A stretch of DNA of 64,000 nt from Bacillota bacterium. GTDB taxonomy: Bacteria; Bacillota_I; Bacilli_A; RFN20; CAG-826. The notes beneath the pieces are model-generated. The model saw nothing but the letters and a program-made list of their open reading frames with translations, was not told where the DNA came from and ran no database searches. Where the stretch lies: assembly GCA_039799785.1 (NCBI GenBank), contig JBDLRZ010000078.1, positions 2,973 through 66,972 on the forward strand, given 5' to 3'. The position numbers and the translations under genes were made by a program. Of this stretch, positions 29,000-49,787 are shown one piece after another. The number at the start of each line of letters is the position of its first letter. The stretch's first letter is position 1.

Positions 29000-31900
29000 T
29001 TATGCGTTGAATGCGTATTCAATTTTTTCACCTTCTATTTCAAAAACAAAGTTTAATTCATAAGGTTCTTGACTTAAGGTAGTTAAAATACCACTTGGAT
29101 TTGTAAACGGATTTGGTGTTGTGACCGTAACAATTAAGGCCGAAAGACCATCAAAACCAGAATTCGTAACAATTCTAGCAGCATAAAATAATTGTCCAAC
29201 TTTACTTAAATATGTATTTGACCATCCTGCATAGTTCGTAGCTGTAGGATAAGGCCCACCCGTCACATTCAATGAAATTCTAGAACCCATTTTGATAAGG
29301 GCAGCTTTCATAGCAGTGATATCAGATGAGTTGGGAGTTCCACTAACACCTTTAATAGCAGATAAAAATTCAAGTGACCCTTCTAGACCTATTGCTTCGA
29401 TTGGGTTCAATAGTTCAAAATCAGTATTGCCATCTTGGTTCAAATCATAAAAATTTAATTGTTTAGATATATTATTGGCATCACCGAAAAATATAGCATT
29501 GGTATCTTCTACGATTGCATATTCGCCTTTAAAAATATCGGTGAAAAATCCTGCAGATAATTCTGAAACCATAAAAGCCCGATCTATGATAGTTTGCCCA
29601 GTAGCCATATAAGTCAAATCAATAAGCGAACGCATTTCACTACTATATTGATCTAGACTAGATGCGTCTGATAAACTCGTAAAATTAGAAATAACCCCTA
29701 TAAATTGGTCTAATCGTGAAGCCTCAAAAACTTCATCAAAATCCCCACTAAATATTTCTTCAACTCGAATTACCTTTAATTCTTTATCAGAGGCTAAAGT
29801 GGTTAAGTAATCAAAATACTTACTTACACTTGCTGTATTTAAAAAGTTATAAAATGTTAAAGATCGTGTTTTAAAACTTCCAATTGTGGTTACATTAAAT
29901 GGCGTCAATCCTGTATTGGTGGCATCTGGATTCAATATTTTAGTCGCATTATTTCCAAATATTTGCGAATTACTTAATAAATTTACCAATGGATATAGGG
30001 AACCTCCATCAGCTAAAAAATTACTGACATTGAAGCCACCACTTATCGATATATACTCTTCTGTGATTTGATCATAAAAGCTATTTAATAATCCATCAAT
30101 AAGTCCAGAAGAAATGACGGTGCCAGGAAGAGTAGAATAATTCATAACGTTAATATCGGCTGATAAAAATTGAACCGGCGTTAATTCATAGGTTTCATTG
30201 TTTTCAGTATAGGTTCCAAAGTTGATGCTACTAAAAGCATCCTTAACCATTTTTTTTACAGCGTCTGCTGTCAGTGATGAATAATTTAAGACTGACATAA
30301 TTCTTCCAATTGAACTAGGAGACAAAGCTCCTGCATCTATACTTGAGGCATTACCTAAGTTAGGTAAAGCGACTTTTAGTTCCTTAAAAATTCTAAAGAA
30401 TGCATTGATTTCTCCTACATTTTCGTCATCAAGCCAGTTATCGGTTAAGTGGGTCGAATTATTGGTTGGAAAAAGCGTTACATAATTTAGAACTAATGCA
30501 TCTGCTTTCGCATTCGCATTTCCATAAACAGCGTCTGCCAAGCGAGCTGCATCATAAGCCAGGCTGGCCATACCTGTATCCTTAAACATTTTTGCCATCA
30601 TTTGCTCAAAGATTGTTAAATCATCAGCATCGGCAGTTGAAGGACCAGTTAAATGAAAGACTTGAGAATCATGTAAATCTCTTACTAAATTAGCCATATC
30701 ATCAATTGCTTGGTCTGATAAATCTTTAATTGAACCATAAGCACGATTACCAACAACTTTCACATCCGAGAAAATAGATAAAATTGCTGAAATTTCAGCG
30801 TTATCGTAAGGCATATATTGATCTCCAACTGAAAGATTATTAGGATCATTTCTTGTTCCTCTATAACGGAAATTGGCAAGAGTAAAATCAACACCTACTG
30901 AAGAAAAATCCCCTCCTTCTAGCATATTAGAGAATAAATTTGGAATTGCAGGATAAACAATTGTGGAGTTATTCATACTTAATAGTAGGTTTTCTATTTT
31001 CGCTAAACCTACTGGTGTATCAATTAAATTTGATAATGTATCAGAAGAGCCTGCTCCAGAAAAAGAAGCAAAATCTAAGTCTAAATCTTTAAAGGCTTCT
31101 AAAATGGAGATAATCTTTGAAATTTCTCCCGTGCTACCTTTCCAACTATCAGGATTAATTGAAACTGCAAAATTATTAGGAATTACACTTATATCATCTT
31201 GTAAATAGTTAAGTCGATTCGTGTTGCTTTCACCATCAAAAACAAATGTATCAAGTGTGGAAGTGTTTATGATCATTCTTACCGTTTGTTCAAAAATTGT
31301 TAAGTTATTGTTTGCATATGAATTGCCAGTCTTAAATGAATTAAATACATAAGAATCGTGCATTTTATTCAATAAGTCATTAAATAAAACTGGATTGATT
31401 AGTTCTGAAGTAAAGGCAGTTCCACCAGTTAAACCAATAGCATTGATATCTGAATAAATGTCTAAAATTTGGGAAATTTCTTGGCCCCTATCAATTTTAC
31501 TTGACTCAACATTAAAGTAATTTGTATTTGCATCGCTCATGGTTAAACCATTGATATTAAAGGAATCGGAATCAAAGATGTTACCAAATAGATTTCCAAT
31601 CGAGGGAGCGACTAATGTTGAGTTGTTCATTGACAATAATAAATTCTCTACTTTTGCTAGGCCCGGACCTGTACTCAATAAATCAGAAATCGCATCGCCA
31701 CCAAAGTTAGCAAAATCAATATCGGTTTCTTTAAAGGATTCAAGGATGCCAATAATTTGATTAATTTCACCGTTATTTCCAGTCCAATCATCATCCGTCA
31801 AACCATTGCCAAAATTATTTTCTAAATCCGCAATATCATCTTGCAGTAACAATAATCTATTTGCATTAATCGGCTCATCATAGATAAAGGTATCAAGGGT

Positions 31901-34900
31901 TGAGGTATTTAAGATCATCCGAACCGTTTGTTCAAAAATGGTTAAATCATCGAGTAAATAACTATTTCCTGATTTAAAGGAATTGAAAACATTAGAATCA
32001 TGCATTTTATTGAGTAAAGCATCAAATAAAACTGGGTCTATTAAATCAGCTGAAAATGCTGCTCCACCGGTAATACCAATACTATTGATATCCCAATAAA
32101 TATCGAGAATTAAACTAATCTCCGTTGCTCGATTGACTTTGAGTGGTTCTTGATTAAAAAAATTCGTGTTCGCATCTGACATGGTTAACCCACCAATATT
32201 AAATGCATCAGAACCAAAAACATTTCCAAATAAATTTCCTATGGCAGGTGAAATTATGGTTGATTCATTCATGGATAATAAAAGATCTTCTACTTTTCCT
32301 AATCCAACTTCTGTATTCAATAAATCACCAATTGCATCTCCACCAAAGTTGGTAAAATCAATACCGGTATTAACAAAGGCCACCATGATATCAACAAAGC
32401 GTTGAATTTCGCCATCGATGCCATCCCAATCATCCGGTGTTTCCGTTCCAAAATTATTATCAAGTGACGTCATGTCTTGATAAAGTGCTGCCTCTGTTTG
32501 AACTTCAGTAAGGCCATCATAAATAAAAGTGTCTAACGTAGCAGTGGTCAACAGAAATTGATAGGCTTGTTCAAACACGGTAAGGTCGCCATTGGTTCGT
32601 GAGCGACCTAATTTAAATGAATTAAATAAGGCAGCGTCGTGGAGAATCGTGAGTAAATCGCCAACCGTAAGAATGGTTGATTCGTCAAAATTTGCAATAT
32701 CAAAGGCACCCCCACCATCAAGGCCCATATCACTAATCGTGTCTAATAAGTCTGCGGTTGCTTGAATTTGTTGGGCACGACCAGCTTGATTTAAATCTAA
32801 AAATACAAAGGTATTTGTTTGTGATAATGAAAGGGAACCAATATCAAAATTTGAACCACCAAAAATAGAGTCATAAACGTTAAACACAAGCACCCTTAAA
32901 GATGATGCATTGTTCAATGCGAGTAATACATCGGAAATGGTTTGACCATTTAATCCTGTGCCAGAAGTAAGATCTGTAATCGATACAGATTGTAATTCTG
33001 CAATAAATCCAACGATATTTTCTAATTCACCACCAACGTATTCATATTGAATATCTCCATTGACGTCCAAAATTGGATCATTATTAATATCGGTGATCAT
33101 GGTCTTAACACCATACCAATTGGCTCTTGTTGAGGTTTGATTACTAATCGCATAGAAATCTTCGGTTACGATGGTGAAATTATCAGCTGGATTGTCATCC
33201 CATGTTGATTGATATGGAGAAGGATCTTCAAAATAACTGGCAAGATCAGCAATGCCGGTAAGTTGATCTAATAAAAAATCTGGAAAGACATAATCTCCAT
33301 TGGGTTTGATAAAGATTTGTGATGCGGCTAAGCCTTGTAGAAGTTCTTCAATCATCGTTACATCTGAATTTAAAAAATCGATATTTTCTAAACCATCAGC
33401 AAAATTAGTTAACTGCTTGACGAGATACATCAAGTTAGAACCTTCTTCTGTCCAAGATGTCACGTTTCTAAATGAAGTCCCTAAATCTGGATCTAATAAG
33501 CCACCTGTGGAACCAAATAAGTTATCGAGAATACCACCAAATGCAGCGGCAATAATTTCTGAACGATCTGCATAGGCAAAGATTTTGTAGAGTGTTGCCA
33601 CTTCTGGGTCATCGATATCTTCACTACCTGTTGTTAAGTCTTCTAAAGCTGCAAATAAATCGCCAGAAATATCGAGTAAACCTGATTCTAAAGCGGTTTT
33701 TAAGAAATTAATAAGGTGGAAATTTTCACCTCTAAAGGAAATGGTATCCAATTCATCCAATTTATCATTACCATTGGTGTCGATAAAAGTTGTGGTCCAT
33801 CCATTTTCCAAACCAGACGGTCCAACACGATTAAATCCTGTATCAATATCCGTCTCCTCGATACCAATGCCTTCAACTAACGAAAAGATTCCTTTGATGA
33901 TTTGATTAAAATTTGTGGTCTTATTGTTCGTATCAGGGTTTAGATTGATAATATCGGAATAATAAATATTATCGAGCAAACCAATTAAATCGTATGCAAT
34001 CGTCGGAAACTGATTCAATAAATCCGAGCTAGCGTCTAAAACATTAAACGCATATCCCATCATATCAACCACGATGGTTAATTCTCTGGATAAGCTTTCA
34101 AAATCAAAATTTAAATCAGCAGTCGTCAAAGAAATTAAACTTAAGAAGTCATCGAACCCAGCTCCAGTTAAAGTAGATTCAAGAATGCCAGGTACAACGG
34201 TTAAAATAATTTGTGAACGATCAAGAGAAGGAATTAAGTCTGCTTTTAAACCAAGTCTAAATTCTCCATCCTCAAGTAAAGCAAGAATATCAAGAGTTTG
34301 ACCAGGTTCTGGCTGGATCAAACTGATGAGCGTTTCATTTCCCAATACAGCCCCTAAAATACTGAAAATTCCACCAAATTCATCTTTGTAATCAATACGT
34401 ATGTCACCACTGGTTCCGGCATTAAAATCTGAGATGAGTTCATTTAATTCCGTGTCATCAAATTCTGCACCAGCGACACTCGTTAGCGTTGGCAATAGTA
34501 AATCCTCAACAATGGATGGTAAGCCATTTACGATTAAATCGGAATCCAATAAGGAACGACGATTGATTGCTTTACCAGTTGTGGGATCATTATTTATCGG
34601 TAAGCCATCTTCATCAACTTCCCCAATCAAAATTTCCACGAATAAATCAAAATGATCTTTTAACAAGTCAATTAAGGTTGGCGTTGGTTCATCAACTGCT
34701 TTTCTACCGAATGGAACTTGATCTTGATTCATGGGTAAAACAACATCAAGTAAACCATCAACTCCTTCATTTAGCTCATAAACCAATTCATAAATTAAAC
34801 TTAATTCTGAACCAAATGAAATCGATTCATATTCGCTCCATTCTGTTGGTAAAAAAGTGGATAAACCGATACCACCTGCAGGGCCTCCTGCTTCGACTTC

Positions 34901-36229
34901 ATCCGTCACTAATTGATATAAAACTGCAGGAATGACTTGTGATAAAAATGGAGATTCATCAAGGGTTTCCAACATCATGATTACTTCATCTTTTGCCTGA
35001 GCGGTAAACATTGAATTTAGAAGGGTTAATGTGTCTGTATTGCCTTCAAGAATTGGGGTTAAAACGCCAGAACGAATGACACCAGTGAAAATATCGCCAA
35101 GATATTGAAGTTCTTCTTCCCAAACCAAATCATCCAACGTAATTAAGTCGGAATCTAAATACGCAGAAACTTCATCTAAATTAAGTCCAATTGTAACTGC
35201 AATCGGTAGAATTTTCATGATTAACACTGATCCAGTTAATGATGTAATTAAATTATTCACAACATCTTCCGTGATTAATAAAGATGTGTCGATTGTACTA
35301 AATGTGCTATCCACTGCACCGCTACCAATGAGCGTTGCTGCAATATCTACAAATGAACCCAATTCATTCGCGAGTGTTAATCGATATGCATCTAAATCTT
35401 GTCCAGTGACATAATCCATTAATGCGGTGTCAATACTTAGACCATCATCCGTTAGCGACCAAGAAAATAAAGTTTGGGCAAAAGTTGAATCATTATAGGC
35501 ATTCACAAAAGACATGATTTCGTTATAAAGTTCACCATCAATTTGATCACCATACTCATCATCAAAATCTTTAAATGAACCGGTGATGGTGTTAACCAAG
35601 GATGTAAAAGGTGAAAGAAACATCGTTAATACCAACACCATTTTTAATGCTCCCGCTAAAGCACCAAAAAGTCTCATTTTTGCCTTTTTTCTAAGGTTTC
35701 TTGGAATTAAAAAGCGGAAAGGTATGAAGTAAAGGATGGCTGCAATGGTTTCACCAAGGAAGAATATGATGACTGCCAAGACGATGAAAACGAGATATCT
35801 TAAAATTACCAATGTTAAACCAATTATTAAATCTGCAATGGCAGGGGTGATAAAAAAACCGAACGCAAGCAGAGACTGCTCTAATATTTCATAAATCGTT
35901 TCATATGGGGTCGTAACAGCAACAATGATGGGTGCTCCATTTAAATTAAGTGAAATTGAACTAAAACCTGCGCTTGAAGCTAAACTTGAAATATCAAAGT
36001 CCATTGCAAAATCAACTATCTGCCGTGTAAATAAAACCGAAGCAATAACTAATCCACCAACAAAAAATAACCGAAAACCTTCTCGCCAAATGCCTCTTAA
36101 AAAACCTAAAATAAATCCTAATGCAACCATGCCAAAAATTCCATATAGGGCGTAATCTAAATACTGTGCAATCTGGCCTGGATCAATTCCAAAACTTAAA
36201 ATCGTTTGCATATTAAACCTCCAAGGCAT
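29000..36229 (-). CDS. Giant (2409 aa) cysteine-free, acidic, membrane-anchored repeat protein; putative surface protein of unknown function.
   Basis: Single uninterrupted ORF. N-terminal roughly 215 aa contains about 5 hydrophobic helices. The remaining roughly 2200 aa is D/E/N/S/T/G-rich with no Cys. At least 3.5 tandem roughly 210-aa repeats (TLDTFIYD...NNFG...DDW...GEI...DIDFxNFGGDA...LLLSMNxST...IGNLFGN...GLTMSDANTN...LLNKMHDS.VFNSFK). Confidence 0.8.
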   Translation of the reverse strand: MPWRFNMQTILSFGIDPGQIAQYLDYALYGIFGMVALGFILGFLRGIWREGFRLFFVGGLVIASVLFTRQIVDFAMDFDISSLASSAGFSSISLNLNGAPIIVAVTTPYETIYEILEQSLLAFGFFITPAIADLIIGLTLVILRYLVFIVLAVIIFFLGETIAAILYFIPFRFLIPRNLRKKAKMRLFGALAGALKMVLVLTMFLSPFTSLVNTITGSFKDFDDEYGDQIDGELYNEIMSFVNAYNDSTFAQTLFSWSLTDDGLSIDTALMDYVTGQDLDAYRLTLANELGSFVDIAATLIGSGAVDSTFSTIDTSLLITEDVVNNLITSLTGSVLIMKILPIAVTIGLNLDEVSAYLDSDLITLDDLVWEEELQYLGDIFTGVIRSGVLTPILEGNTDTLTLLNSMFTAQAKDEVIMMLETLDESPFLSQVIPAVLYQLVTDEVEAGGPAGGIGLSTFLPTEWSEYESISFGSELSLIYELVYELNEGVDGLLDVVLPMNQDQVPFGRKAVDEPTPTLIDLLKDHFDLFVEILIGEVDEDGLPINNDPTTGKAINRRSLLDSDLIVNGLPSIVEDLLLPTLTSVAGAEFDDTELNELISDFNAGTSGDIRIDYKDEFGGIFSILGAVLGNETLISLIQPEPGQTLDILALLEDGEFRLGLKADLIPSLDRSQIILTVVPGILESTLTGAGFDDFLSLISLTTADLNFDFESLSRELTIVVDMMGYAFNVLDASSDLLNQFPTIAYDLIGLLDNIYYSDIINLNPDTNNKTTNFNQIIKGIFSLVEGIGIEETDIDTGFNRVGPSGLENGWTTTFIDTNGNDKLDELDTISFRGENFHLINFLKTALESGLLDISGDLFAALEDLTTGSEDIDDPEVATLYKIFAYADRSEIIAAAFGGILDNLFGSTGGLLDPDLGTSFRNVTSWTEEGSNLMYLVKQLTNFADGLENIDFLNSDVTMIEELLQGLAASQIFIKPNGDYVFPDFLLDQLTGIADLASYFEDPSPYQSTWDDNPADNFTIVTEDFYAISNQTSTRANWYGVKTMITDINNDPILDVNGDIQYEYVGGELENIVGFIAELQSVSITDLTSGTGLNGQTISDVLLALNNASSLRVLVFNVYDSIFGGSNFDIGSLSLSQTNTFVFLDLNQAGRAQQIQATADLLDTISDMGLDGGGAFDIANFDESTILTVGDLLTILHDAALFNSFKLGRSRTNGDLTVFEQAYQFLLTTATLDTFIYDGLTEVQTEAALYQDMTSLDNNFGTETPDDWDGIDGEIQRFVDIMVAFVNTGIDFTNFGGDAIGDLLNTEVGLGKVEDLLLSMNESTIISPAIGNLFGNVFGSDAFNIGGLTMSDANTNFFNQEPLKVNRATEISLILDIYWDINSIGITGGAAFSADLIDPVLFDALLNKMHDSNVFNSFKSGNSYLLDDLTIFEQTVRMILNTSTLDTFIYDEPINANRLLLLQDDIADLENNFGNGLTDDDWTGNNGEINQIIGILESFKETDIDFANFGGDAISDLLSTGPGLAKVENLLLSMNNSTLVAPSIGNLFGNIFDSDSFNINGLTMSDANTNYFNVESSKIDRGQEISQILDIYSDINAIGLTGGTAFTSELINPVLFNDLLNKMHDSYVFNSFKTGNSYANNNLTIFEQTVRMIINTSTLDTFVFDGESNTNRLNYLQDDISVIPNNFAVSINPDSWKGSTGEISKIISILEAFKDLDLDFASFSGAGSSDTLSNLIDTPVGLAKIENLLLSMNNSTIVYPAIPNLFSNMLEGGDFSSVGVDFTLANFRYRGTRNDPNNLSVGDQYMPYDNAEISAILSIFSDVKVVGNRAYGSIKDLSDQAIDDMANLVRDLHDSQVFHLTGPSTADADDLTIFEQMMAKMFKDTGMASLAYDAARLADAVYGNANAKADALVLNYVTLFPTNNSTHLTDNWLDDENVGEINAFFRIFKELKVALPNLGNASSIDAGALSPSSIGRIMSVLNYSSLTADAVKKMVKDAFSSINFGTYTENNETYELTPVQFLSADINVMNYSTLPGTVISSGLIDGLLNSFYDQITEEYISISGGFNVSNFLADGGSLYPLVNLLSNSQIFGNNATKILNPDATNTGLTPFNVTTIGSFKTRSLTFYNFLNTASVSKYFDYLTTLASDKELKVIRVEEIFSGDFDEVFEASRLDQFIGVISNFTSLSDASSLDQYSSEMRSLIDLTYMATGQTIIDRAFMVSELSAGFFTDIFKGEYAIVEDTNAIFFGDANNISKQLNFYDLNQDGNTDFELLNPIEAIGLEGSLEFLSAIKGVSGTPNSSDITAMKAALIKMGSRISLNVTGGPYPTATNYAGWSNTYLSKVGQLFYAARIVTNSGFDGLSALIVTVTTPNPFTNPSGILTTLSQEPYELNFVFEIEGEKIEYAFNA
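30880..33200 (-). repeat. In-frame coding tandem repeats, period about 630-650 bp, at least 3.5 copies, inside the giant gene (approximate boundaries).
   Basis: Repeated protein blocks. Plus-strand shadow ORFs 30963, 31539 and 32166 share similar peptides (for example ASPPKLAKSI / ASPPKLVKSI) at about 630-650-bp offsets, showing nucleotide-level repetition. Confidence 0.7.
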
Positions 36230-36292: not shown

Positions 36293-37060
36293 ATGTTAAT
36301 ACAGTCTAATCAAAATGAGCTTATATCAAGAAAACATTCGTTGGCACTTTTTTTTCTAGGCTGGCTAGGTTTATGGATATTTGCACTCATATTTGCGATT
36401 CTTATTCCAATCATTGCACCATGGTTTTTAACTCAAAGCGATGCAACTTTATTTCTAGAAAGTCCATTCTTTTTCCAACTCATTAATTTTTTAACTTATC
36501 TTTTCATCTTTTTGATTGGCCTAACGATATTATTACCTTATATAGGACGTTCATTTTTACCTGCAATACAATCTTCAAAATGGCTATTAGGATTACCGTT
36601 TACCTTTGTGATTCTTTTAAGTTCTTATGCACTCATCACTGTTTATGATTATCTTGGAATTGTCTTGGAAGATAATCAAAATCAAAGTGCGATTGTAACC
36701 CTTGTTCAAGATTCACCCATTATTTCACTGATTACATTTGGCTTTTTAGGCCCCATCGTTGAGGAATGGACTTATCGATTAGGTATTTTTAAGTACCTAA
36801 AACAGCGGAATAATCTACTAGCATACTTGGTAACTTTGACCATTTTTGGATTTATCCATTTTGATTTTACGGCAACTAATTTAGTCAATGAACTGTTAAA
36901 TTTACCGATTTATTTGATTGCCGGAGCTTGGTTTTGCTTCCTTTATGATAAATTTGGACTACAAGTCGCATTATCAACTCATATCATGAATAACGTATTC
37001 TCAGTCTTAGCGATTATATTAGAGGCGAATTTTATAAGTTCGTCAGGTTCATTGGTATGA
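36293..37060 (+). CDS. CPBP-family intramembrane metalloprotease (CAAX protease / Abi family)
   Basis: GPIVEEWTYRLGIF (EExxxR motif) and FGFIHF (FxxxH) signatures; 255 aa polytopic. Confidence 0.75.
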   Translation: MLIQSNQNELISRKHSLALFFLGWLGLWIFALIFAILIPIIAPWFLTQSDATLFLESPFFFQLINFLTYLFIFLIGLTILLPYIGRSFLPAIQSSKWLLGLPFTFVILLSSYALITVYDYLGIVLEDNQNQSAIVTLVQDSPIISLITFGFLGPIVEEWTYRLGIFKYLKQRNNLLAYLVTLTIFGFIHFDFTATNLVNELLNLPIYLIAGAWFCFLYDKFGLQVALSTHIMNNVFSVLAIILEANFISSSGSLV

Positions 37061-37914
37061 ATAACCCAAGAAGTTTTAGTGCTTATCAACTGAAATGGTT
37101 AGCAATTATGACGATGACAATCGATCACTTTGGAGTATTGGTTTTATTACCTTTTGCTCAAACTGAAAGCATTGCTACCCTTTACCTCATTGCAAGATTA
37201 ATTGGTCGACTTGCTTTTCCGTTATTTGGTTTTATGATCGCTGAAGGTATTTATCGTTCAAAAAAACCAATTCAATATATCGCTCGAATTGCGCTGATGG
37301 GATTATTTATTGGCATAGCCATGTTCTTATTAGGTGAATTTGGCATCCAAACTTTATCAGGTAACATTTTTATTGATTTAACCATGGCTGCACTCGCTAT
37401 GTATTTACTCAAACAACAACATGTGCTCATTCGCTTTTTGGCATTGATACCGATTTTTTATGTAATGATAACCAGTTTTACCAATCAATTTCCAAATTAC
37501 TTAAGTGCAGATTATGGCTTTTATGGATTGGTGATGATGATATTATTTTTCCTTTCTTATCAAAAATTGCCAACCTTTTTTTATCAATTGAACCCATTTA
37601 AATTCTCCTCAACGGAATTTACCATTGAACAAAAACGATATCAAATGGCGAGTGTCATTTTCATCCTCATGCATATACTTTGGTATATAATTAGTCTTGT
37701 TTTGAATGATGGATTGAATCTTTCAGGACCGATTGTTTCGTATATCAATCGATTTGTTGGTGCCCAAACCTATGCCGTGTTCGCTGCCTATTTTATTTAT
37801 CACTATCGAGGGGTCAAAGGTTCAACTCCAAAGTGGTTCCAAGTCTTCACATACTTATACTATCCATTACATTTTGTTGCCCTATACGCGATTTATTATC
37901 TTGTCAGTTTATAA
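37057..37914 (+). CDS. TraX-family membrane protein
   Basis: N-terminal LKWLAIMTMTIDHFG motif typical of TraX family; polytopic; 285 aa; 4-nt overlap with the CPBP gene. Confidence 0.6.
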   Translation: MNNPRSFSAYQLKWLAIMTMTIDHFGVLVLLPFAQTESIATLYLIARLIGRLAFPLFGFMIAEGIYRSKKPIQYIARIALMGLFIGIAMFLLGEFGIQTLSGNIFIDLTMAALAMYLLKQQHVLIRFLALIPIFYVMITSFTNQFPNYLSADYGFYGLVMMILFFLSYQKLPTFFYQLNPFKFSSTEFTIEQKRYQMASVIFILMHILWYIISLVLNDGLNLSGPIVSYINRFVGAQTYAVFAAYFIYHYRGVKGSTPKWFQVFTYLYYPLHFVALYAIYYLVSL

Positions 37915-38304: not shown

Positions 38305-38378
38305 GCAGGTGTAGTTCAGTGGTAGAACATTAGCCTTCCAAGCTAATTACGCGGGTTCGATTCCCGTCACCTGCTCCA
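38305..38378 (+). tRNA. tRNA-Gly (anticodon UCC)
   Basis: Manual cloverleaf: acceptor GCAGGTG/CACCTGC, anticodon loop CTTCCAA, T-loop TTCGATT, 3' CCA encoded. Confidence 0.9.
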
Positions 38379-38405
38379 AAACAAGTTGAAACTTGTTTTT
38401 TTTTT
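38379..38405 (+). terminator. Rho-independent terminator after tRNA-Gly
   Basis: aaacaagt-tgaa-acttgttt hairpin followed by a run of 10 T. Confidence 0.65.
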
Positions 38406-38432
38406 ACATAAATACTTGGTAAAATAGAAGTA

Positions 38433-39047
38433 ATGAATTACGAAATTATTTTAGCAACAAACAACGAAGCTAAAATTGTTGAAATAAAGAGTTTTTTTAA
38501 AGACTATACCGTAACATTTTTAACCTTAGACGATGTTAAATTAAAGTTAAAACCAAAGGAAACAGGTAGAACTTTTTTAGAAAACGCTCTCCTTAAAGCG
38601 AAGGCTGTAAGTAAGCATGTGAATAAAACGGTTGTTGCGGACGATTCGGGTTTACAAATTGATGCCCTCCATGGTTTTCCAGGTGTCTATTCATCACGCT
38701 GGTTAGAAGACAAACCATACGAAGAAAAAAATAAAGAAATTTTACGATTGATGAACGTACATAAAAATAGAAAAGCCCAATTTACCAGTGCCTTTGTCAT
38801 CTTATATCCACATCAAGAAATGCGCTTCTTTGTTGGCACTACCATTGGAAAAATAACCCGAGAAATTGATCAAAATCAAAATGGATTCGGTTATGACCCT
38901 ATTTTTTATAGTGATGAACTGTTAAAAACCTTTTCCCAAGCTACCATTGAGGAAAAAAATAAAGTGTCCCATCGTGGTAAGGCCTCAGCGAAGTTACTCC
39001 AGTGTTTGTTAGATAAACGTTTAATTACAAAAATTAAATCAAGATGA
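38433..39047 (+). CDS. rdgB: Non-canonical purine NTP pyrophosphatase (RdgB/HAM1, dITP/XTPase)
   Basis: N-terminal ILATNNEAK and FGYDPIF motifs; 204 aa; TGA stop overlaps the next ATG (ATGA). Confidence 0.85.
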   Translation: MNYEIILATNNEAKIVEIKSFFKDYTVTFLTLDDVKLKLKPKETGRTFLENALLKAKAVSKHVNKTVVADDSGLQIDALHGFPGVYSSRWLEDKPYEEKNKEILRLMNVHKNRKAQFTSAFVILYPHQEMRFFVGTTIGKITREIDQNQNGFGYDPIFYSDELLKTFSQATIEEKNKVSHRGKASAKLLQCLLDKRLITKIKSR

Positions 39048-40330
39048 AGAATCGAACGACGCAATGGTTTAGAATCGATAATGCGGGAAAACTTTTTCCA
39101 ATTATTACTGAAACTAGAAGATCTTCCTATTTTCGAATGAGTGTCATGCTAAAGGAAACGGTTGACCCAGTCGTCCTACAAAAAGCTACTGAAAAAACGT
39201 TATTTCGATTCCCAAATTTTAACACCCGATTACAAAGGGGCCTCTTTTGGAACTATTTAGAAAATCAGTCCAAAGCATTTAAGGTTTTACCTGATCCTAA
39301 TACATTTGGATCGAATAGTAGACCCTTTGATAGCTCAAAACATTTAATTGAAGTTTATTACCATCGTAACCGAATTGCCATTGAAGTTTTCCATGCAATC
39401 ACGGATGGCCGTGGAGGGATGGAATTCTTAAAAACACTTACTCTAGCTTACTTAAGAGAAAAAGGTTATGCAGTCGAATCTGAGGGCATCATTTTTGATG
39501 CCAATGATCAAGTTACACAGGCTGAACTTGAGGATAGTTTTGCCACGAAGGTAACCAAAGGTAAGAGCATTTGGATGCCAAGTAATAAAGCTTACCACCT
39601 TAAAGGCACATACTTCGAACATAATGGTCATTATCTAACGCATGTACATTTAAATACAGAAAATTGTATTGCGATTGCAAGGCAATTTCAAACTACGGTT
39701 ACAGGTCTTTTTGCGACTATTTTAATTTTAGGGCTCATCAAAAAACAGGAAAGTGAAAATCCCAAAAAGCGAAAACCAATTATCCTTTCCATTCCAGTCG
39801 ACATGAGAAAATATCTTCCTTCCAAAACAATGAAAAACTTTGTAATGACGATCAATATTGGAAAAGTATTTTCACCTCAAGCTACTTTTCAAGACGTTCT
39901 CCACGAGGTCAATTTACAATTAAAAGAGGGTCAAAAAATTGAAATATTAGCACCTCAAATTCGTGCCAATATGAAAGCTGAAAGAATGCTTTTGTTGAGA
40001 TTTGTTCCTTTATTTATCAAAAGATGGATTGTGAAAAGTGTCTTCAATCGTGTCGGTGAACCTGCACTAAGTTTAACGATGTCAAACCTTGGAAAAATTG
40101 AAATGCCTTTGACTACCCAACAATATATAGAGCATTTTGAATTTATGATCTGCTCAACACCAATTGTGCCGATAAACTTAGGTGTTGCATCTTTTAAGGA
40201 CCAACTTGTCCTTTCATTTTCTAGAATTATCGATGATCGAACATTTCTAAACTTTTTCATCCAATACCTTGTAAATGAACTTAAACTTGAGGTTTTTGTC
40301 TCTGGAAATCGTTGGGAGGAACAAGATTAA
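39044..40330 (+). CDS. Acyltransferase with condensation-domain-type HxxxDG motif (WS/DGAT, PapA5, alcohol-acetyltransferase-like superfamily)
   Basis: HAITDGRGG catalytic-type motif at about residue 120, 428 aa soluble protein. Translationally coupled on both sides (ATGA with rdgB; TAATG with the downstream zinc-ribbon membrane gene). Confidence 0.55.
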   Translation: MKNRTTQWFRIDNAGKLFPIITETRRSSYFRMSVMLKETVDPVVLQKATEKTLFRFPNFNTRLQRGLFWNYLENQSKAFKVLPDPNTFGSNSRPFDSSKHLIEVYYHRNRIAIEVFHAITDGRGGMEFLKTLTLAYLREKGYAVESEGIIFDANDQVTQAELEDSFATKVTKGKSIWMPSNKAYHLKGTYFEHNGHYLTHVHLNTENCIAIARQFQTTVTGLFATILILGLIKKQESENPKKRKPIILSIPVDMRKYLPSKTMKNFVMTINIGKVFSPQATFQDVLHEVNLQLKEGQKIEILAPQIRANMKAERMLLLRFVPLFIKRWIVKSVFNRVGEPALSLTMSNLGKIEMPLTTQQYIEHFEFMICSTPIVPINLGVASFKDQLVLSFSRIIDDRTFLNFFIQYLVNELKLEVFVSGNRWEEQD

Positions 40331-41016
40331 TGTCTTCTTGTAAACGATGCCGGATACGCGTCGATGAAAGCTTAACGCACTGCCCAGTTTGTGGTAGTTT
40401 TCTTCAACATGTTGAATCAAAAGATCTAGAAAAATTATACCCTTCACCGAATTATGCTCAAATTGAAAAGCAAACAGCAAACCAAATACATGCTTTTTTT
40501 GCCTTTCCTCTTCTACTTGCATTATTATTAACGCTTTTGATTGATTTAGCCCTTATTGCAAATGAATTAGGCACCACGTTCATGATGACCTTTATTGTTT
40601 TCTATGTTTGGGTTTTAATCTATAAAACGATTTACAATCGCCAAGGGATTGGTTATACCATTCTTTGGCAATTATCAAGTTTAAGTATCGGTACCATCAT
40701 TATTGCTTTCGTTGCCACCCAAACCCTTGATACTTGGCCATTGCAATACGTTGTTCCAATCTTGATATCGTTAAGTAACCTGTTATTCTTTATCATCACG
40801 ACGGTAAAAAGAAAAACCGATGTGATTTTGTTTCAAATGTTGATCACGAGTTTAATAGGTTTCGTTCAATTTTCTTTAATTTATTGGCTAATTGGCACCG
40901 ACATCATGGTTCCTTCATTAATCGCTGGTATCACATCGATCATCAACGTTACATCTTTACTTACGTATCTAAGAAAAAAGTTTTTAGATTATCTGCAACG
41001 TTGGCTTCATATATAA
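40330..41016 (+). CDS. Zinc-ribbon (C4) plus polytopic membrane protein; start MSSCKRC at the TAATG overlap. The ORF track gives 40312.
   Basis: CKRCRIRVDESLTHCPVCGS N-terminal Cys4 ribbon, then about 5-6 TM helices; 228 aa. Confidence 0.5.
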   Translation: MSSCKRCRIRVDESLTHCPVCGSFLQHVESKDLEKLYPSPNYAQIEKQTANQIHAFFAFPLLLALLLTLLIDLALIANELGTTFMMTFIVFYVWVLIYKTIYNRQGIGYTILWQLSSLSIGTIIIAFVATQTLDTWPLQYVVPILISLSNLLFFIITTVKRKTDVILFQMLITSLIGFVQFSLIYWLIGTDIMVPSLIAGITSIINVTSLLTYLRKKFLDYLQRWLHI

Positions 41017-41046
41017 AAAAAACCATTACCGGTTGCAATGGTTTTC
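41013..41046. terminator. Bidirectional terminator between the zinc-ribbon membrane gene (+) and eno (-).
   Basis: aaccatt-accggttgc-aatggtt hairpin flanked by an A-run (41014-41022) and a T-run (41042-41045). Confidence 0.5.
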
Positions 41047-42433: not shown

Positions 42434-43894
42434 TTACTGAACTTTTATTTTTTTCGATTTTCTAGTTAAAAAGTAGTGATAAATTGAAAAAATCAGTACC
42501 AAAATAACCAAAACAACGATCAAGGACACCCAGCCTTGTGATACGATTCCGACAAAAAGAAGCAATGGAAAACCTAATGGGATTGCCATTGAAGATCCAT
42601 AGACAATATCATTTGCTGCGGGGGTTTCAAAATAAGGGTCTTTCTCCCTTAATAAAGCGATACCAGTTGAAGCGGTGCCAGTCATGGTTCCATAAAAGAC
42701 CAACCAAGCTTCGTGTGTGTAATGCGGGTAAACGATTTTGGTAAGGTACCCTAGATAGTTATATGTGATGAAACCGCCACCGATGACCAAGACCAGTAAG
42801 CTGACTAAAAAGCCCGGATCTCCGACGAGAGTGATATCAATCGCCATAATGGACGCAATCATCATAATGTCAAAGGCAAAACCTGCAATACGGTTAAGTA
42901 GAAAATCGTTGGTATAAATTCTTTGCATCCATTTGGCCCTTAACAAACCACGCGTAATTACTTTATAGAGTAGGGCAATAAACACGACGATAATAAAATT
43001 AAATCCATAAAGTAAGGGTCTAAGGTTGTTTATTAAAAATGCAACACCACTATTTAAAATGAGTTGTTCTAATATGAAGATTACCAACCAGGAAATACCA
43101 TAAACAAAGAAAATAATGGCAATTTGAATTGTTAATTTATCCACGGCATCTACAAGGGGAATCTGTCCATTACCTTCTAAAACCGTTGACTCTTCTTTAC
43201 TTTCCATGGAAGTTTCTTGGCTGGTTTTTAATAAACCTAATCGTTTAAGTTTTCTTAAGTAAATGACGCCACCTAATGAAGCGGCTAAAAATCCGATGGA
43301 GGCAATTGATAAGCCAAAGTCGCGCCCAAAACTGAAGCCTACGTTTTGAAAAACTGCTCCAACATTCAATGCTTGTCCAGGTCCTTGGCCATAACCCATT
43401 GGTAGCAAGAAACCTACATAAGCAGGTATGTTGATAAAGATGAAACTTAAGACAATGGTGACTAATAATCCAAAAATACCTTGGATTAGGTAAGAGTTCA
43501 CAATGACCATACCACTTTTGACAGCAAGAGGTTTGTTGCGTATTCGACCTTCATTAAGTCGATCGATACCTTTTAATGTTAATGCTCCGAAACCAATTGC
43601 AATCGCATGATAGGTGAACGCACTTAATGTGTTTGCATCAAATAAGCTCGTGGAGGCGATTTCAAGATTTGCAATCGCAATGTCACTTCCATTGAATAAA
43701 TATTTAATCAATAACCCCAAAAATCCACCAATGACTGCCACAGGTAAAAGTGAAGCTTTTAACCATTTAATTTTTCGTCTAAGGATATTCGCCAATAACA
43801 AAACGGACATTATAAGGGCAAACTGAATAATACTACTCCAATAAAAATTAAAGTCCCAAAAAGGAAGCGGCTGGACGTTTGATAAAACCATCAT
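42434..43894 (-). CDS. GltS-like (ESS family) sodium:solute symporter-type membrane protein
   Basis: About 12 TM; motifs PMGYGQGPGQAL and FYGTMTGTASTGIALL resemble the re-entrant loop motifs SGGHGTGAA and GLGATPTAIANM of E. coli GltS; 486 aa. Overlaps the end of the upstream acyltransferase gene by 47 nt. Confidence 0.5.
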   Translation of the reverse strand: MMVLSNVQPLPFWDFNFYWSSIIQFALIMSVLLLANILRRKIKWLKASLLPVAVIGGFLGLLIKYLFNGSDIAIANLEIASTSLFDANTLSAFTYHAIAIGFGALTLKGIDRLNEGRIRNKPLAVKSGMVIVNSYLIQGIFGLLVTIVLSFIFINIPAYVGFLLPMGYGQGPGQALNVGAVFQNVGFSFGRDFGLSIASIGFLAASLGGVIYLRKLKRLGLLKTSQETSMESKEESTVLEGNGQIPLVDAVDKLTIQIAIIFFVYGISWLVIFILEQLILNSGVAFLINNLRPLLYGFNFIIVVFIALLYKVITRGLLRAKWMQRIYTNDFLLNRIAGFAFDIMMIASIMAIDITLVGDPGFLVSLLVLVIGGGFITYNYLGYLTKIVYPHYTHEAWLVFYGTMTGTASTGIALLREKDPYFETPAANDIVYGSSMAIPLGFPLLLFVGIVSQGWVSLIVVLVILVLIFSIYHYFLTRKSKKIKVQ

Positions 43895-45074: not shown

Positions 45075-46202
45075 CTATTGAATATCTTTCACAAAGGCAC
45101 TTCTGGTTTTATGATGACGATGTTCAAAGTTTTTCCATAAGGATTGAACGTGTTGATTGTTTTCTAATTCTGGTCCTGTTTCAGCAATTTGTATACCATT
45201 TTTAACAGCATTTTTAATAGCCTCAGTAAACACCAGGGCCAATACTCCTGAATTCTTAAGAGCAGGTTCAACCGCTACCAAAAGCATATCGAGGACTTTA
45301 CTTCGCTTTAATTGGGAAAAGAAATCGATAAAACCAAATGGAAACAAATGACCTTTTGATCGTTTTAATGCGTCGACTGGTGAAGGAATCATTAATCCAA
45401 ACGCCACAAGTTTTTCATTTGCATCGCACACGAGTTGTATATAATCTAAATTCACAAGCGGAATATATTGTTTTGCTAGCATATCCATTAAATCTTCCTT
45501 TACTGGAACATAACCATATAAGTGATCGTACGTTTTATTCATGAGTTGAAAAATTTGTTTAATGTATGGTGCAAGGGCGGTGTATCTTTTAGATTTTACT
45601 TTGACTAAATGCAATTGATTTCTTTCAAGGACACGTTGAGATATTTTCTCTAAAATCGGAGGTACTTCTTTTGGAACTTTGATTTGATATTCATTCCAAG
45701 TCGCGTCAACTTTAAAGCCATATCGTTCAAAATGCTTAACATAATATGCATCGGTATAAAACGTAACAAACATATTTTTTTCATTGAATCCAAAGGTTAA
45801 TAAACCTTCTTTATCCTGATCAGAATAACCTAGCGGCCCTGCTAATTGAGTCATACCTAAGGCTTTACCATAATCATTAACGGCAGTCATTAATGCATCG
45901 AATACTTCAACATCATCAATAAAATCAATCCGATTAAAGCGGACCCGTTTTTCATGATATTTCTCATTGGAATAGCGATTAATAATGGCAGCAACTCTTC
46001 CAACGATAACGCCATCTTTCAGTGCCAAGAAAAGTCGAAAATCACAATATTCACTTGCAGGGTTATATTTTGCATCTAAATTCTTCATTTCATCTTCAAA
46101 AATATAAGGAGTAAAGTAAGGATTATTTCGATACAGTTTGGTTGGAAAATCAATAAATGCTTTTAAGTCTTTTTTGGTTGAGACGACCTTTATGTTAATC
46201 AT
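45075..46202 (-). CDS. GNAT-fold-like acyl/aminoacyl N-acyltransferase candidate, possibly double GNAT (compare OlsB, GlsB, FemAB, aaPGS-type folds); function unknown.
   Basis: 375-aa soluble protein, first gene of a three-gene coupled operon (TAG-ATG junction with the PlsC-like gene). Sequence features such as LKDGVIVGRVAAII are suggestive only; no definitive motif recognised. Confidence 0.4.
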   Translation of the reverse strand: MINIKVVSTKKDLKAFIDFPTKLYRNNPYFTPYIFEDEMKNLDAKYNPASEYCDFRLFLALKDGVIVGRVAAIINRYSNEKYHEKRVRFNRIDFIDDVEVFDALMTAVNDYGKALGMTQLAGPLGYSDQDKEGLLTFGFNEKNMFVTFYTDAYYVKHFERYGFKVDATWNEYQIKVPKEVPPILEKISQRVLERNQLHLVKVKSKRYTALAPYIKQIFQLMNKTYDHLYGYVPVKEDLMDMLAKQYIPLVNLDYIQLVCDANEKLVAFGLMIPSPVDALKRSKGHLFPFGFIDFFSQLKRSKVLDMLLVAVEPALKNSGVLALVFTEAIKNAVKNGIQIAETGPELENNQHVQSLWKNFEHRHHKTRSAFVKDIQ

Positions 46203-46422: not shown

Positions 46423-47859
46423 TTAGTAGGCTCTGGCAAAATAAACGATACGTTTAGCGGGTTTGCCAGTAATCGCACACAAAGGCTTTAATCCAATTTG
46501 GTCAAAAGGAATAACTCGAGCAGTTGCTTGAGCTTTTTCTTTGATAATTTTTTCAACTTCTTCCGTGTCGTCAACAGAAACTTTCACATAACCACCGAAT
46601 TGATTAAGAATAGAAATCATCTCATCTAGGGAATTGGCTTCACGAATATTGTTAGCAAGATGTTGCTTGGCATGCTGTAAAAGTTCTTGTTGTATCAGTT
46701 CCAAGGTAAGTTTGGATTCTTGTACGAGGTCATTAAACTTGATGATTTTTTTAATTTTATCATTGCGTTTTACCATCACCACTTGTTGTTGTTCAAGGTC
46801 ACGAGGACCTAATTCAATTCTTAAAGGAATACCTTTCATTTCAGCTTCAGCATATTTCCAACCTGGTGAATTATCAGTTTCATCAAGCATGACTCTGATA
46901 CCGGATTGTTTTAAGGTATCAAATAAGACCTTGGCTTGACTTAATACACCTGGTTTTTGAGGCATAATGGGTACAATGACAATTTGAATTGGCGCAACGC
47001 GTGGCGGTAAAATCAAACCATTGTCATCACCATGCACCATGATTAAACTTCCAATTAATCGAGTTGAAACACCCCATGAAGTTTGGTGAACTGGTTGTAA
47101 TTGATTTTGGCGATTTTGAAATTGAATGCCAAATGCTTCAGCAAAACCTGTCCCAAAATAATGGCTTGTTCCAGATTGCAAGGATTTACCATCATGCATC
47201 AGCGCTTCCACAGCATAGGTTTCCTTGGCACCTGCAAATTTTTCTTTTTCAGTTTTTCTGCCCGTTAAAAATGGAATCGCCAATAATTCTTCCCCAAGGG
47301 TTTGGTATATTTTTAACATTTGCAAGGTTTCAAATCTTGCTTCTTGTTCTGTTTCGTGAGCAGTATGACCTTCTTGCCATAAGAATTCAGCCCCTCTTAA
47401 GAAAGGTCGAGTCGTTTTTTCCCATCTTACAACCGAACACCATTGATTATATTTCTTTGGTAAATCTCGATAAGAATTAATGATTTTTGCATAATGTTCA
47501 CAAAAGAGAACTTCTGAGGTTGGGCGAATAATTAAAGGATCTTCTAATTTTTCTTTTCCACCTAGGGTTGCAATTAATGTTTCAGGTGCAAATCCTTCAA
47601 CATGTTCTTTTTCTTTGTTAAATAAACTTTGTGGTATCACCATAGGCATATAGACATTTTCATGTCCTGTATCTTTAAATTTTTGATCGAGATATTTTTG
47701 GATTTGTTCCCAAATTGCGTATCCATACGGCCGATAAATAATGAATCCTTTAATTGATGAATAGTCCATTAATTCAGCTTTTTTGCAAACATCTGTATAC
47801 CATTGTGCAAAATCAGATTGTCTAGAGGTGATCGCCTCATTTTTAATTTGTTTTTCCAT
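46423..47859 (-). CDS. proS: Prolyl-tRNA synthetase (short, archaeal/eukaryote-like type)
   Basis: Class II aaRS motifs, 478 aa without bacterial-type insertion domain; C-terminal zinc-binding region. Confidence 0.9.
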   Translation of the reverse strand: MEKQIKNEAITSRQSDFAQWYTDVCKKAELMDYSSIKGFIIYRPYGYAIWEQIQKYLDQKFKDTGHENVYMPMVIPQSLFNKEKEHVEGFAPETLIATLGGKEKLEDPLIIRPTSEVLFCEHYAKIINSYRDLPKKYNQWCSVVRWEKTTRPFLRGAEFLWQEGHTAHETEQEARFETLQMLKIYQTLGEELLAIPFLTGRKTEKEKFAGAKETYAVEALMHDGKSLQSGTSHYFGTGFAEAFGIQFQNRQNQLQPVHQTSWGVSTRLIGSLIMVHGDDNGLILPPRVAPIQIVIVPIMPQKPGVLSQAKVLFDTLKQSGIRVMLDETDNSPGWKYAEAEMKGIPLRIELGPRDLEQQQVVMVKRNDKIKKIIKFNDLVQESKLTLELIQQELLQHAKQHLANNIREANSLDEMISILNQFGGYVKVSVDDTEEVEKIIKEKAQATARVIPFDQIGLKPLCAITGKPAKRIVYFARAY

Positions 47860-49588
47860 AATATTGCTCCTGTTTGTTAATGAGTGCCTTTACTTTATTC
47901 ACGGTGCGTTTACTTGGATGGTCTGGATTCGTCTGATAACCCATAATCCAATCTGCACTCAAGATTTTAACATGCTTTAGGGGAAGAAATTCTAAGCTCG
48001 CTTCTGACAATAAATCCGAGAGAATAAATGGTTTATTAAACCTAGAAAAATTTTGGAAAATAAGTTTTAATTGGATAGAGGACTTTTGAGTATTTTCAAC
48101 ATGAATAACACGTTTATAATCTAAGTAATAGAAATCAAAATATTGATAAATTTCATCAGGTAAATTAGTTGTCATGTCATCAATTGACAAGGCAAATCGA
48201 ATGCCAAATCGGTAAAATGGTTCTGCCCAAGCCTTTAGAGAAATTTCGGTTGTAGCTAATTCTTTTACTTCACTCTCATCAAGTAAAATCGTAATGTTTT
48301 TAGCGTTTGATAAGTTTTTGATGTCATTTAAAAAATCAAAAGGTTTAATGACCATAGAGAAAGGAACCAATATGCGTTGACTTAATGAAGGCAATACCAC
48401 TTGTCCGATTAAATATAAATAACGTCGATAGAAATCTTTTGTATAGCTCATCATTTCATTTGCATCTTGAAGTAATTCTAATGTGGTAAGTGGCGTAGAC
48501 ATGAGGGGTTGGATAATCACTTGTTGACCAAATACAGTCATATCTTCTTGATTCATTAACGGACGAAAATTTAATGAAAATTTTAGTTGATGATATAAAT
48601 CTTCTGCAAACATCGTCTCATTCGATTGAAGGGTTTGTACAATTGGTTGATTGGTTTCGTAAGGAAGAATAGACATTTTACGTTTAATCATAAGTTGGTT
48701 GAGCTCTTTACTCTTGCGCATCAGGGTTCGGAAATCATTTGGAAAATGTTTGTGTTCAATGATTGCCATATTAAACCTAATTAAAGATTCTAAAGCATTA
48801 ACTTCAACATATTGAGAAACAACTTGATAGAGACCTTGTGCAGTTTGCATATATTCATGCGTTTCAGCTGCTTTTGTTACCAAGACAAGTATGTCATTAG
48901 CAGAGTCAATTAATAAAATATTGGGAGATAAATATGGTACGAGTTTTTCCTTGATTTGTGAAAGATAAAAGTATTTGAATTGTTCATCCAAACCAGAGCG
49001 AGGAAACATCATAAATATTGAAATAAAAACTCCATTTTTACTTGGCAACTTTTTAATAATGTCAAGAGCCTGTTGTGAACTAATAACCATTGATTTCAAC
49101 GTTGCTTTTTTGGGATTGGGTTTAAGGTATTTTAATCCATATTGATGTAAATGGATGGTTTGTTTTACTTCATCAATTTTGACAACTTCAAAAATAAGTT
49201 GGCGATAATTTTTTCTTTTTAAAGTTTTTGTAGTCAATATCCAACTTGTATCCAATTTAGAGGTTAAAAGGTTTTCCCACCACTTATATATTTTTTCGGA
49301 TTCTAGTGCAGAAAATTTTTTAAGAAATTGACTCAACGCAATAATCTTTTCTTTACCAGGATGCTTTGGATCAAATTCATAAACAGCGTCAAGTTTTAAG
49401 TTAATTCGATAAACCAAGTAATGGTGAATACGTTGTTGAATGGCTAAACGATGCTTGTTCTGACTTCTTTGAAAGTATATTAGTACAATAAAAATGATTA
49501 AAATTGTGAGTAACACAAAGATAGCAACTGCAATAAATAGAGTTGGATTTTCAAAAATTGGTAACCAAGTAAATATCTTGATTTTCAT
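47843..49588 (-). CDS. Membrane-anchored protein with degenerate EAL-like C-terminal domain and possible degenerate GGDEF-like middle region
   Basis: N-terminal TM (IAVAIFVLLTILIIFIVLIYF). C-terminal FALSIDDMTT (compare DDFGTG), FDFYYLDYKRV (compare KIDKSF) and ADWIMGYQ (compare QGY) are EAL-like, but the EAL glutamate context is missing; 581 aa. Confidence 0.4.
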   Translation of the reverse strand: MKIKIFTWLPIFENPTLFIAVAIFVLLTILIIFIVLIYFQRSQNKHRLAIQQRIHHYLVYRINLKLDAVYEFDPKHPGKEKIIALSQFLKKFSALESEKIYKWWENLLTSKLDTSWILTTKTLKRKNYRQLIFEVVKIDEVKQTIHLHQYGLKYLKPNPKKATLKSMVISSQQALDIIKKLPSKNGVFISIFMMFPRSGLDEQFKYFYLSQIKEKLVPYLSPNILLIDSANDILVLVTKAAETHEYMQTAQGLYQVVSQYVEVNALESLIRFNMAIIEHKHFPNDFRTLMRKSKELNQLMIKRKMSILPYETNQPIVQTLQSNETMFAEDLYHQLKFSLNFRPLMNQEDMTVFGQQVIIQPLMSTPLTTLELLQDANEMMSYTKDFYRRYLYLIGQVVLPSLSQRILVPFSMVIKPFDFLNDIKNLSNAKNITILLDESEVKELATTEISLKAWAEPFYRFGIRFALSIDDMTTNLPDEIYQYFDFYYLDYKRVIHVENTQKSSIQLKLIFQNFSRFNKPFILSDLLSEASLEFLPLKHVKILSADWIMGYQTNPDHPSKRTVNKVKALINKQEQYYGKTN

Positions 49589-49668
49589 TTATCAAATTAT
49601 ACCTTTCTCTTCACAACCTAACAATCCTTTTTCGATTCAACCATACGATGAAATGAGGGTTAAAATCG

Positions 49669-49676
49669 TGTATAAT
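49669..49676 (+). promoter_or_regulatory. Extended -10 promoter element (TGTATAAT) for tRNA-Ser(CGA) and the GDPD gene
   Basis: TGnTATAAT ending 9 nt upstream of the tRNA 5' end. Confidence 0.4.
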
Positions 49677-49685
49677 TTTTCTCAC

Positions 49686-49776: not shown

Positions 49777-49787
49777 AGGAAATTAAA

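Follow-up and report, generated by a model that had tools for sequence, protein, structure and literature searches.

A 64,000-nucleotide stretch of DNA from a Bacillota bacterium (contig JBDLRZ010000078.1, positions 2,973 to 66,972), here called the window, carries a gene for an HxxxDG acyltransferase followed directly by a gene for a zinc-ribbon membrane protein of the family DUF6320, the two lying in an apparent operon headed by rdgB. The conserved unit is ACYLTRANSFERASE + DUF6320, and it is this acyltransferase-DUF6320 module, accompanied by an esterase in some lineages, and not the fusion with rdgB, that is the part worth following. Taken as a whole, an O-acyltransferase complex that is docked at the membrane and acts on the hydroxyl of a hydrophobic acceptor is a moderately probable account of the pair, while the class of the enzyme and the pairing itself are very probably right and stand much firmer than the chemistry or the docking. 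The open reading frames (ORFs) concerned, with lengths in amino acids (aa), and the features within them are listed here.

38433..39047, + strand: rdgB, first gene of the apparent operon (Pfam Ham1p_like and TIGR00042)
39044..40330, + strand: 428-aa ORF of the HxxxDG acyltransferase, cytoplasmic (fold, motif and relatives)
39389..39418, + strand: catalytic motif F116-H117-A-I-T-D121-G122-R-G124-G (FHAITDGRGG; alignments and model)
40082..40093, + strand: C-lobe motif S347-N348-L-G350 (N348 and G350 invariant, S347 at least 90% conserved)
40314..40319, + strand: GGGAGG Shine-Dalgarno sequence, 10 nt 5' of the DUF6320 start codon (direct sequence reading)
40330..41016, + strand: gene of the 228-aa DUF6320 membrane protein (PF19845 match)
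40339..40392, + strand: Cys4 zinc ribbon, C4, C7, C18 and C21 (CKRC...CPVC), predicted cytoplasmic (invariant Cys)
40501..40932, + strand: six transmembrane helices, approximately residues 58-201, N-in/C-in (hydropathy and positive-inside charge distribution)

The AlphaFold2 (AF2) model of the acyltransferase, built from 42 relatives, has a mean predicted local distance difference test score (pLDDT) of 87.1 and a predicted template modelling score (pTM) of 0.89. When it was compared with the PDB by Foldseek, the matches were condensation domains, PapA5 (1q9j), TRI3, a mannosylerythritol-lipid acyltransferase and BAHD enzymes, with E-values from about 5e-16 to 1e-13 and a probability of 1.0, which places the protein in the superfamily of chloramphenicol acetyltransferase (CAT), condensation domains, BAHD and PapA5 with the two-lobed CAT-like fold. 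F116, H117, D121, G122 and G124 are invariant in alignments of 26 and 42 sequences that include relatives down to 30% identity. In the model the motif occupies the loop that connects strand 110-116 to helix 122-139, a region with a pLDDT of 90-95, and the loop after this core strand of the N-lobe is the usual site of the HxxxD motif in the superfamily. Distribution was scanned with one genome per species, giving at least 588 species loci with a relative of the acyltransferase, and all counts out of 80 given here refer to the best 80 of these loci; HxxxD was found in 80/80 and the C-lobe motif [ST]N[LIMV]G in 78/80. An earlier note, made from the letters of this DNA, had taken the middle gene for an HxxxDG acyltransferase and proposed conservation and active-site mapping of the His and Asp as a check, and both the fold and the invariant, correctly placed motif bear this out. 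No hydrophobic or transmembrane segment and no signal peptide was predicted in the acyltransferase. Its N-terminal segment W8-D12-N13-K16-P19 is conserved, yet is the least confident part of the model (pLDDT 38-66), and may be an interface that folds only in the presence of a partner or substrate.

The same note had suggested a profile search against Condensation, WES_acyltransf, AATase and PapA_C, and here the outcome was divided, the window protein itself giving no significant match and some of its relatives passing AATase marginally. The window protein scored 18.4 bits against the PapA5 model NF006787 of NCBIfam (cut-off 396) and 15.3 bits against PapA_C (PF16911, cut-off 30). AATase (PF07247) gave no match to it even at E-values up to 10, and the cut-off of 22 bits was passed by relatives P0008 (87% identical, 23.6 bits), P0064 (33.2 bits) and P0067 (34.1 bits), in alignments that cover the C-lobe only. 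AATase matches at E≤0.01 were obtained for 12 of the 42 relatives, and others approach PapA_C. Condensation (PF00668) had no significant match to the window protein and matched 2/42 relatives weakly (best E 0.0022), so that the protein falls outside this family as it does outside AATase. The Pfam models of wax ester synthase/diacylglycerol acyltransferase (WS/DGAT), WES_acyltransf and DUF1298, matched neither the window protein at E-values up to 10 nor the 42 relatives at E≤0.01. A sequence search of the PDB with the window protein and with the 42-sequence profile returned only designed repeat proteins and one non-ribosomal peptide synthetase (NRPS) at E 1.1. Since its own profile scores fall short, the assignment rests on structure, motif and relatives, and on the modelled fold the middle gene is an HxxxDG acyltransferase of an unclassified branch of the CAT/condensation/PapA5/AATase superfamily, nearest to the alcohol acetyltransferase and PapA5 families.

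The downstream gene matches PF19845 (DUF6320) with 63.6 bits against a cut-off of 29.9 (E 2.9e-17) over profile positions 6-186 of 186, and is thus a member of a family that Pfam lists as of unknown function. In the mechanical ORF list this gene starts at TTG 40312, but ATG 40330 is the better and credible start because it has GGGAGG upstream, homologues start at the equivalent Met and the 228-aa product is also that of public gene calls. All four ribbon cysteines (CxxC...CPxC) are invariant in the alignments, CxxC..CxxC is present in 77/77 partners of the acyltransferase, and a YP motif comes after the ribbon. The N-in/C-in topology follows from the K/R-rich loops, which lie on the same side as both termini and hence on the side of the ribbon. 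The AF2 model has helices at residues 42-76, 82-102, 107-132, 136-159, 164-187, 190-213 and 215-227, the C-terminus being an amphipathic helix to residue 227. The invariant cysteines, the topology and these helices agree with the Cys4-ribbon polytopic membrane protein described in the earlier note. W136 and P143 are the only invariant residues in the membrane part, and there is therefore no sign of a catalytic centre in DUF6320. A profile search among 1.84 billion representatives gave 3,182 clusters (1,527 at E≤1e-10), and the 150 best-scoring representatives are all 172-288 aa long, most of them about 230 aa.

It is the pairing of the two genes that is most consistently kept. DUF6320 lies immediately downstream of the acyltransferase and on the same strand in 77/80 loci, with a median gap of 4 nt; the genes overlap in 24/73 and are separated by 30 nt or less in 65/73. 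Of the three exceptions, one is a contig that stops 418 bases after the acyltransferase, and two, L036 and L055, are truly without DUF6320. Reciprocal look-ups from three divergent DUF6320 proteins found an acyltransferase directly upstream in 3/3. Clustering of all ORFs of the 80 loci against each other gave no conserved neighbour besides DUF6320 and, by way of fusions, an esterase. Together with natural fusions of the two proteins, these counts show acyltransferase and membrane protein to be strongly co-conserved, a question that the earlier note had raised. One metagenome-assembled genome (MAG) of the Izemoplasmatales has two acyltransferase paralogues, L078 with DUF6320 and L036 without, and some acyltransferase copies may function alone or depend on a partner shared in trans. 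In L005 (4460-8552; Bacillus sp. FJAT-26390) a divergent PadR regulator and an Abhydrolase_1 gene border the pair and a TetR regulator lies downstream, a context that is stress- or detoxification-like; PadR and TetR regulators were considered as recurrent partners and rejected, the arrangement of L005 not recurring in other loci.

The loci, at least 588 in number, belong nearly all to the Bacillota (Clostridia, Bacilli, Acholeplasmatales and Izemoplasmatales), contradicting the view in the earlier note that low-GC bacteria seldom have HxxxDG acyltransferases. Carriers include the abundant gut groups Oscillospiraceae, Christensenellaceae, Ruminococcus and Acutalibacteraceae. Cultured strains are also among them, namely Oceanobacillus caeni CCUG 53534 (an esterase makes its locus, L033, a three-gene one), Bacillus sp. 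FJAT-26390, Clostridiaceae bacterium M8S5 and Oscillospiraceae bacterium WX1. The module was also found in MAGs labelled Acholeplasmatales, Mollicutes and Izemoplasmatales (L017, L018, L058, L060 and L078), groups that lack a cell wall. A cell-wall polymer such as peptidoglycan or teichoic acid is therefore an unlikely acceptor and was rejected.

Natural fusions add to the evidence for the pair. In proteins of 626 aa the acyltransferase is joined directly to the DUF6320 helices by a linker that keeps the YP motif and has no cysteines, so that the covalent link replaces exactly the zinc ribbon. As the ribbon is absent in the fusions, the simplest reading is that enzyme and membrane subunit are normally held together by it. 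In a second type of fusion, of about 720 aa, an N-terminal alpha/beta hydrolase (Abhydrolase_3) precedes the acyltransferase, with the HGGG and GESAGG motifs intact and the Asp and His conserved. This family-IV esterase, of the hormone-sensitive-lipase type, occurs in about a third of the loci: it is fused in 10/80, directly upstream on the same strand in 14/80 and divergent in 2/80, and it was seen in 3/3 of the DUF6320-centred look-ups. Among proteins of solved structure, those nearest to it are acetyl esterases and family-IV esterases (9izt at E 5.6e-54, E40, Est8 and EstD11). The esterase also matches Say1_Mug180 (PF10340), a match that overlaps the generic one to Abhydrolase_3 and is not specific evidence for sterol substrates. 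The association of acyltransferase and esterase suggests a reversible acylation/deacylation pair.

From these observations a mechanism can be proposed in outline. The 428-aa protein is predicted from fold and motif to be a soluble and catalytically competent HxxxDG acyltransferase that would be obligately paired with the product of the DUF6320 gene next to it on the downstream side, whose cytoplasmic Cys4 ribbon most likely docks the enzyme at the inner face of the membrane. There the complex would form an ester by acylating a hydroxyl on an acceptor that resides in the membrane or is hydrophobic in some other way, the donor probably being an acyl-coenzyme A (acyl-CoA) with an acetyl or other short acyl group. 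Ester chemistry is favoured by the recurrence of an ester hydrolase beside an AATase-like transferase. In some lineages a cytoplasmic esterase would reverse the acylation, the window having the two-gene version without it. rdgB is a normal house-cleaning enzyme that happens to be the upstream operon neighbour in the window clade.

Several points weigh against this account. The top fold matches of the acyltransferase are amide-forming NRPS condensation domains, and the fold alone does not favour esters; on its own the protein is below every Pfam and NCBIfam threshold, its best Pfam match being PapA_C at E=0.014. L036 and L055 have the acyltransferase with no DUF6320 next to it. The AF2 model of DUF6320 is only moderately confident (pLDDT 70.7, pTM 0.47), and its comparison with the PDB by Foldseek gave no match (best E 0.73), which for a moderate model says little. 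The helices are without conserved polar residues, and DUF6320 could serve as an anchor, as a gate for the substrate or in some other role. The whole 64-kb window was searched for an esterase homologue and yielded none, and since the window clade also lacks one, what is concluded from the esterase is borrowed from other lineages.

Among the alternatives, an NRPS-like condensation enzyme that stands alone and makes an amide, either an N-acyl amine or a lipo-amino acid, with DUF6320 serving as anchor or exporter, appears unlikely. NRPS condensation domains (PF00668) share the fold and the position of the motif with the window enzyme and are its best Foldseek matches, the weak Condensation matches of relatives align over the motif region, and the JGI label for the family is 'NRPS condensation-like uncharacterized protein'. 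Against this, the enzyme is stand-alone, only DUF6320 and the esterase emerged as conserved neighbours in the ORF clustering, and no gene for adenylation, thiolation or a carrier protein was found among the annotated neighbours in the locus look-ups. The recurrent partner is an esterase and not an amidase, and AATase, a family of O-acetyltransferases, is the only curated threshold that relatives cross.

A neutral-lipid synthase like the bacterial WS/DGAT enzymes (AtfA-type), making wax esters or triacylglycerol to be mobilised by the hormone-sensitive-lipase-type esterase, is quite unlikely. With those enzymes the window protein has in common the HxxxDG superfamily and motif, and an acylation of lipid alcohols by an enzyme working peripherally at the membrane would be shared as well; the partner esterase, moreover, belongs to the hormone-sensitive-lipase family. 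The profile comparison given above detected no similarity to WS/DGAT in the window protein or any of its 42 relatives, however, and WS/DGAT is not known to have a dedicated membrane subunit. A synthase and a lipase in one polypeptide would amount to a futile cycle. The closest solved relatives of the esterase are named acetyl esterases, esterases or carboxylesterases, and enzymes of this sort are short-chain enzymes and not true lipases.

DUF6320 might instead regulate the enzyme, for instance as a zinc-ribbon sensor in the membrane by which activity is gated, or be its target and itself acylated. Its membrane domain is without conserved residues of a catalytic type and the stoichiometric pairing fits either role, but the fusions, in which the enzyme is tethered to the helices and the ribbon is absent, point to a scaffold more than to a substrate or a switch, and no sigma factor or regulator recurs nearby, making this a very unlikely reading. 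Hardly credible is the functional coupling of rdgB to the acyltransferase and the membrane protein, with co-translation reflecting a shared pathway as the earlier note implied: the ATGA overlap and an adjacency that holds to 53% acyltransferase identity speak for it, but it is largely refuted by distribution, rdgB being nearby in only 4/80 species loci, within a block of nine genes that is syntenic as a whole in the clade and includes the housekeeping genes trx and eno, and with a rdgB-acyltransferase junction that differs among relatives.

rdgB itself is unambiguous, with 193.5 bits to Pfam Ham1p_like (E 4.2e-57) and 187.5 bits to TIGR00042 (cut-off 145.35), and is a genuine RdgB/HAM1 XTP/dITP diphosphatase, a house-cleaning enzyme for non-canonical purine nucleoside triphosphates. 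The loci with rdgB near the acyltransferase are all from the closest relatives of the window, where the order CAAX protease-TraX-thioredoxin-rdgB-acyltransferase-DUF6320-eno-membrane protein-PlsC is kept to 53% acyltransferase identity. At 41% identity rdgB is gone and the pair sits behind unrelated genes, and the junction varies from an overlap of 4 nt in the window to one of 1 nt in L091 and abutting genes in L088. Because it is confined to one clade with a frozen block and is lost at 41% identity, the link to rdgB is clade-specific synteny and carries no sign of a functional connection with the pair. On the far side of eno, the PlsC-type acyltransferase accompanies the pair in the same 4/80 loci only, and the 'acyl-lipid tailoring hotspot' that the earlier note saw here is likewise not supported. 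Both the sequence and the ORF list do place the three ORFs and the two start/stop overlaps of that note on the + strand, the stop of rdgB sharing bases with the acyltransferase start in ATGA (39044-39047) and the acyltransferase stop sharing bases with the DUF6320 start in TAATG (40328-40332). In bacterial operons no junction between genes is commoner than a short start/stop overlap, and the two in the window are for that reason ordinary. The three ORFs are real genes and not chance ORFs, since the acyltransferase has 256 database relatives, with E-values down to 1e-286, and the membrane protein clears the PF19845 cut-off. None of the three proteins matched the PADLOC profiles, which cover known and candidate anti-phage defence systems. 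For annotation, the lesson is that the link between rdgB and the acyltransferase reflects synteny rather than function.

Among known systems the closest functional analogy to the pairing of acyltransferase and esterase in about a third of the bacterial loci is offered by yeast, where Atf2 acetylates sterols and the alpha/beta hydrolase Say1 deacetylates them (PMC8857485). Atf1 and Atf2 (AATase, PF07247) are, like the proposed complex, HxxxDG enzymes acting at membranes, and some relatives of the window enzyme score above the AATase cut-off; the comparison falls short in that the window protein itself is under this cut-off and its relatives align by the C-lobe only. Atf1 and Atf2 further bind the membrane by their own amphipathic helices (PMC4122449), whereas here a separate zinc-ribbon membrane subunit appears to take this role. 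PapA5 of Mycobacterium tuberculosis is among the best structural matches (E 5.3e-16, TMq 0.58, TMt 0.64), is likewise a stand-alone two-lobe enzyme, esterifies a lipid alcohol and is reached by weak PapA5 and PapA_C profile matches. Unlike PapA5, the window protein scores far under the cut-offs, comes from another phylum and has a membrane partner without PapA5 counterpart, and no polyketide synthase stands among the window neighbours (rdgB, DUF6320, eno) or is conserved in the 80 loci. In the literature searched, which included bacterial alcohol acetyltransferases, nothing was found on the acyltransferase family, DUF6320 or PF19845 was not mentioned, and neither the pairing nor the substitution of the ribbon was found described. 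The catalytic fold is a familiar one, and no description of its dedicated membrane partner was found in this literature; both proteins are already catalogued as unknowns.

Extending the yeast analogy, the module of acyltransferase, DUF6320 and esterase might be a bacterial Atf2/Say1-like cycle, its membrane-docked O-acyltransferase using short-chain acyl-CoAs on steroid-like or other bulky hydrophobic alcohols, and its members in gut Clostridia might be the enzymes that make 3-O-acyl bile acids; this is a long shot. Christensenella makes 3-O-acyl cholic acids from short-chain acyl-CoAs (PMC12692188), no enzyme is listed for 3-O-acyl bile acid esters in a 2024 review table (PMC11487544 supplement), and the module is present in the Christensenellaceae MAGs L029, L035, L042, L063 and L071. 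Against the lead, several of the reported producers are Bacteroidota, where the acyltransferase family was essentially not seen, and nothing in the data links the window organism or its nearest relatives, all of them MAGs only, to a bile-acid environment.

Should the membrane-docked O-acyltransferase complex prove right, it would be a widespread lipid- or metabolite-esterifying machine of the Bacillota, with the acyltransferase in at least 588 species, and would represent a new way to place an HxxxDG acyltransferase on the membrane, by means of a six-helix subunit that is a protein of its own and carries a zinc ribbon as docking module. DUF6320 would gain an assigned role as well, and the recurrent esterase suggests a reversible acylation switch.

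Upstream and downstream of the three genes the window has the following features.

38305-38378: tRNA-Gly(UCC), just 5' of rdgB
41018..41046: hairpin with a 12-bp stem between the convergent DUF6320 and eno genes, called terminator-like on the minus strand

On the plus strand TTTTC lies directly 3' of the hairpin at 41018-41046, which is probably a bidirectional terminator ending the operon. An AT-rich hairpin (AACAAGTT/AACTTGTT) with a T-run was observed 3' of the tRNA-Gly gene (38380-38433, +). TGgTAAAAT, resembling an extended -10 element, is found at 38417-38425, only 7 nt before the rdgB ATG; this ATG has no clear Shine-Dalgarno sequence, and the promoter scan did not call the element. The operon may be leaderless or may be transcribed by read-through from tRNA-Gly.

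Within the syntenic block, the CAAX-protease-like (Rce1-like) and TraX-family genes (36293-37914, +) overlap by ATGA at 37057-37060. The PlsC-type acyltransferase (PF01553; 43848-45074, -) has a long C-terminal extension with CPSC...CREC, a second zinc-ribbon-like motif in the neighbourhood, and its gene overlaps by 47 nt that of a 486-aa protein (42434-43894, -) with about 11 transmembrane helices and no Pfam match. Further away, a giant ORF of 2409 aa (29000-36229, -) has N-terminal hydrophobic segments, no Pfam match and three to four internal repeats of about 190 aa each with the motif NSFK.G...LTIFEQ...TLDTF.YD; a protein of 2418-2419 aa, similar to it in size, is conserved in relatives. 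A prolyl-tRNA synthetase gene is flanked by a glycerophosphodiester phosphodiesterase with an N-terminal extension and by ORFs of 375 aa and 581 aa, both without Pfam match, and the coordinates of these flanking genes are given jointly.

49494-50813 (+), 45075-46202 (-) and 47843-49588 (-): genes flanking that of prolyl-tRNA synthetase

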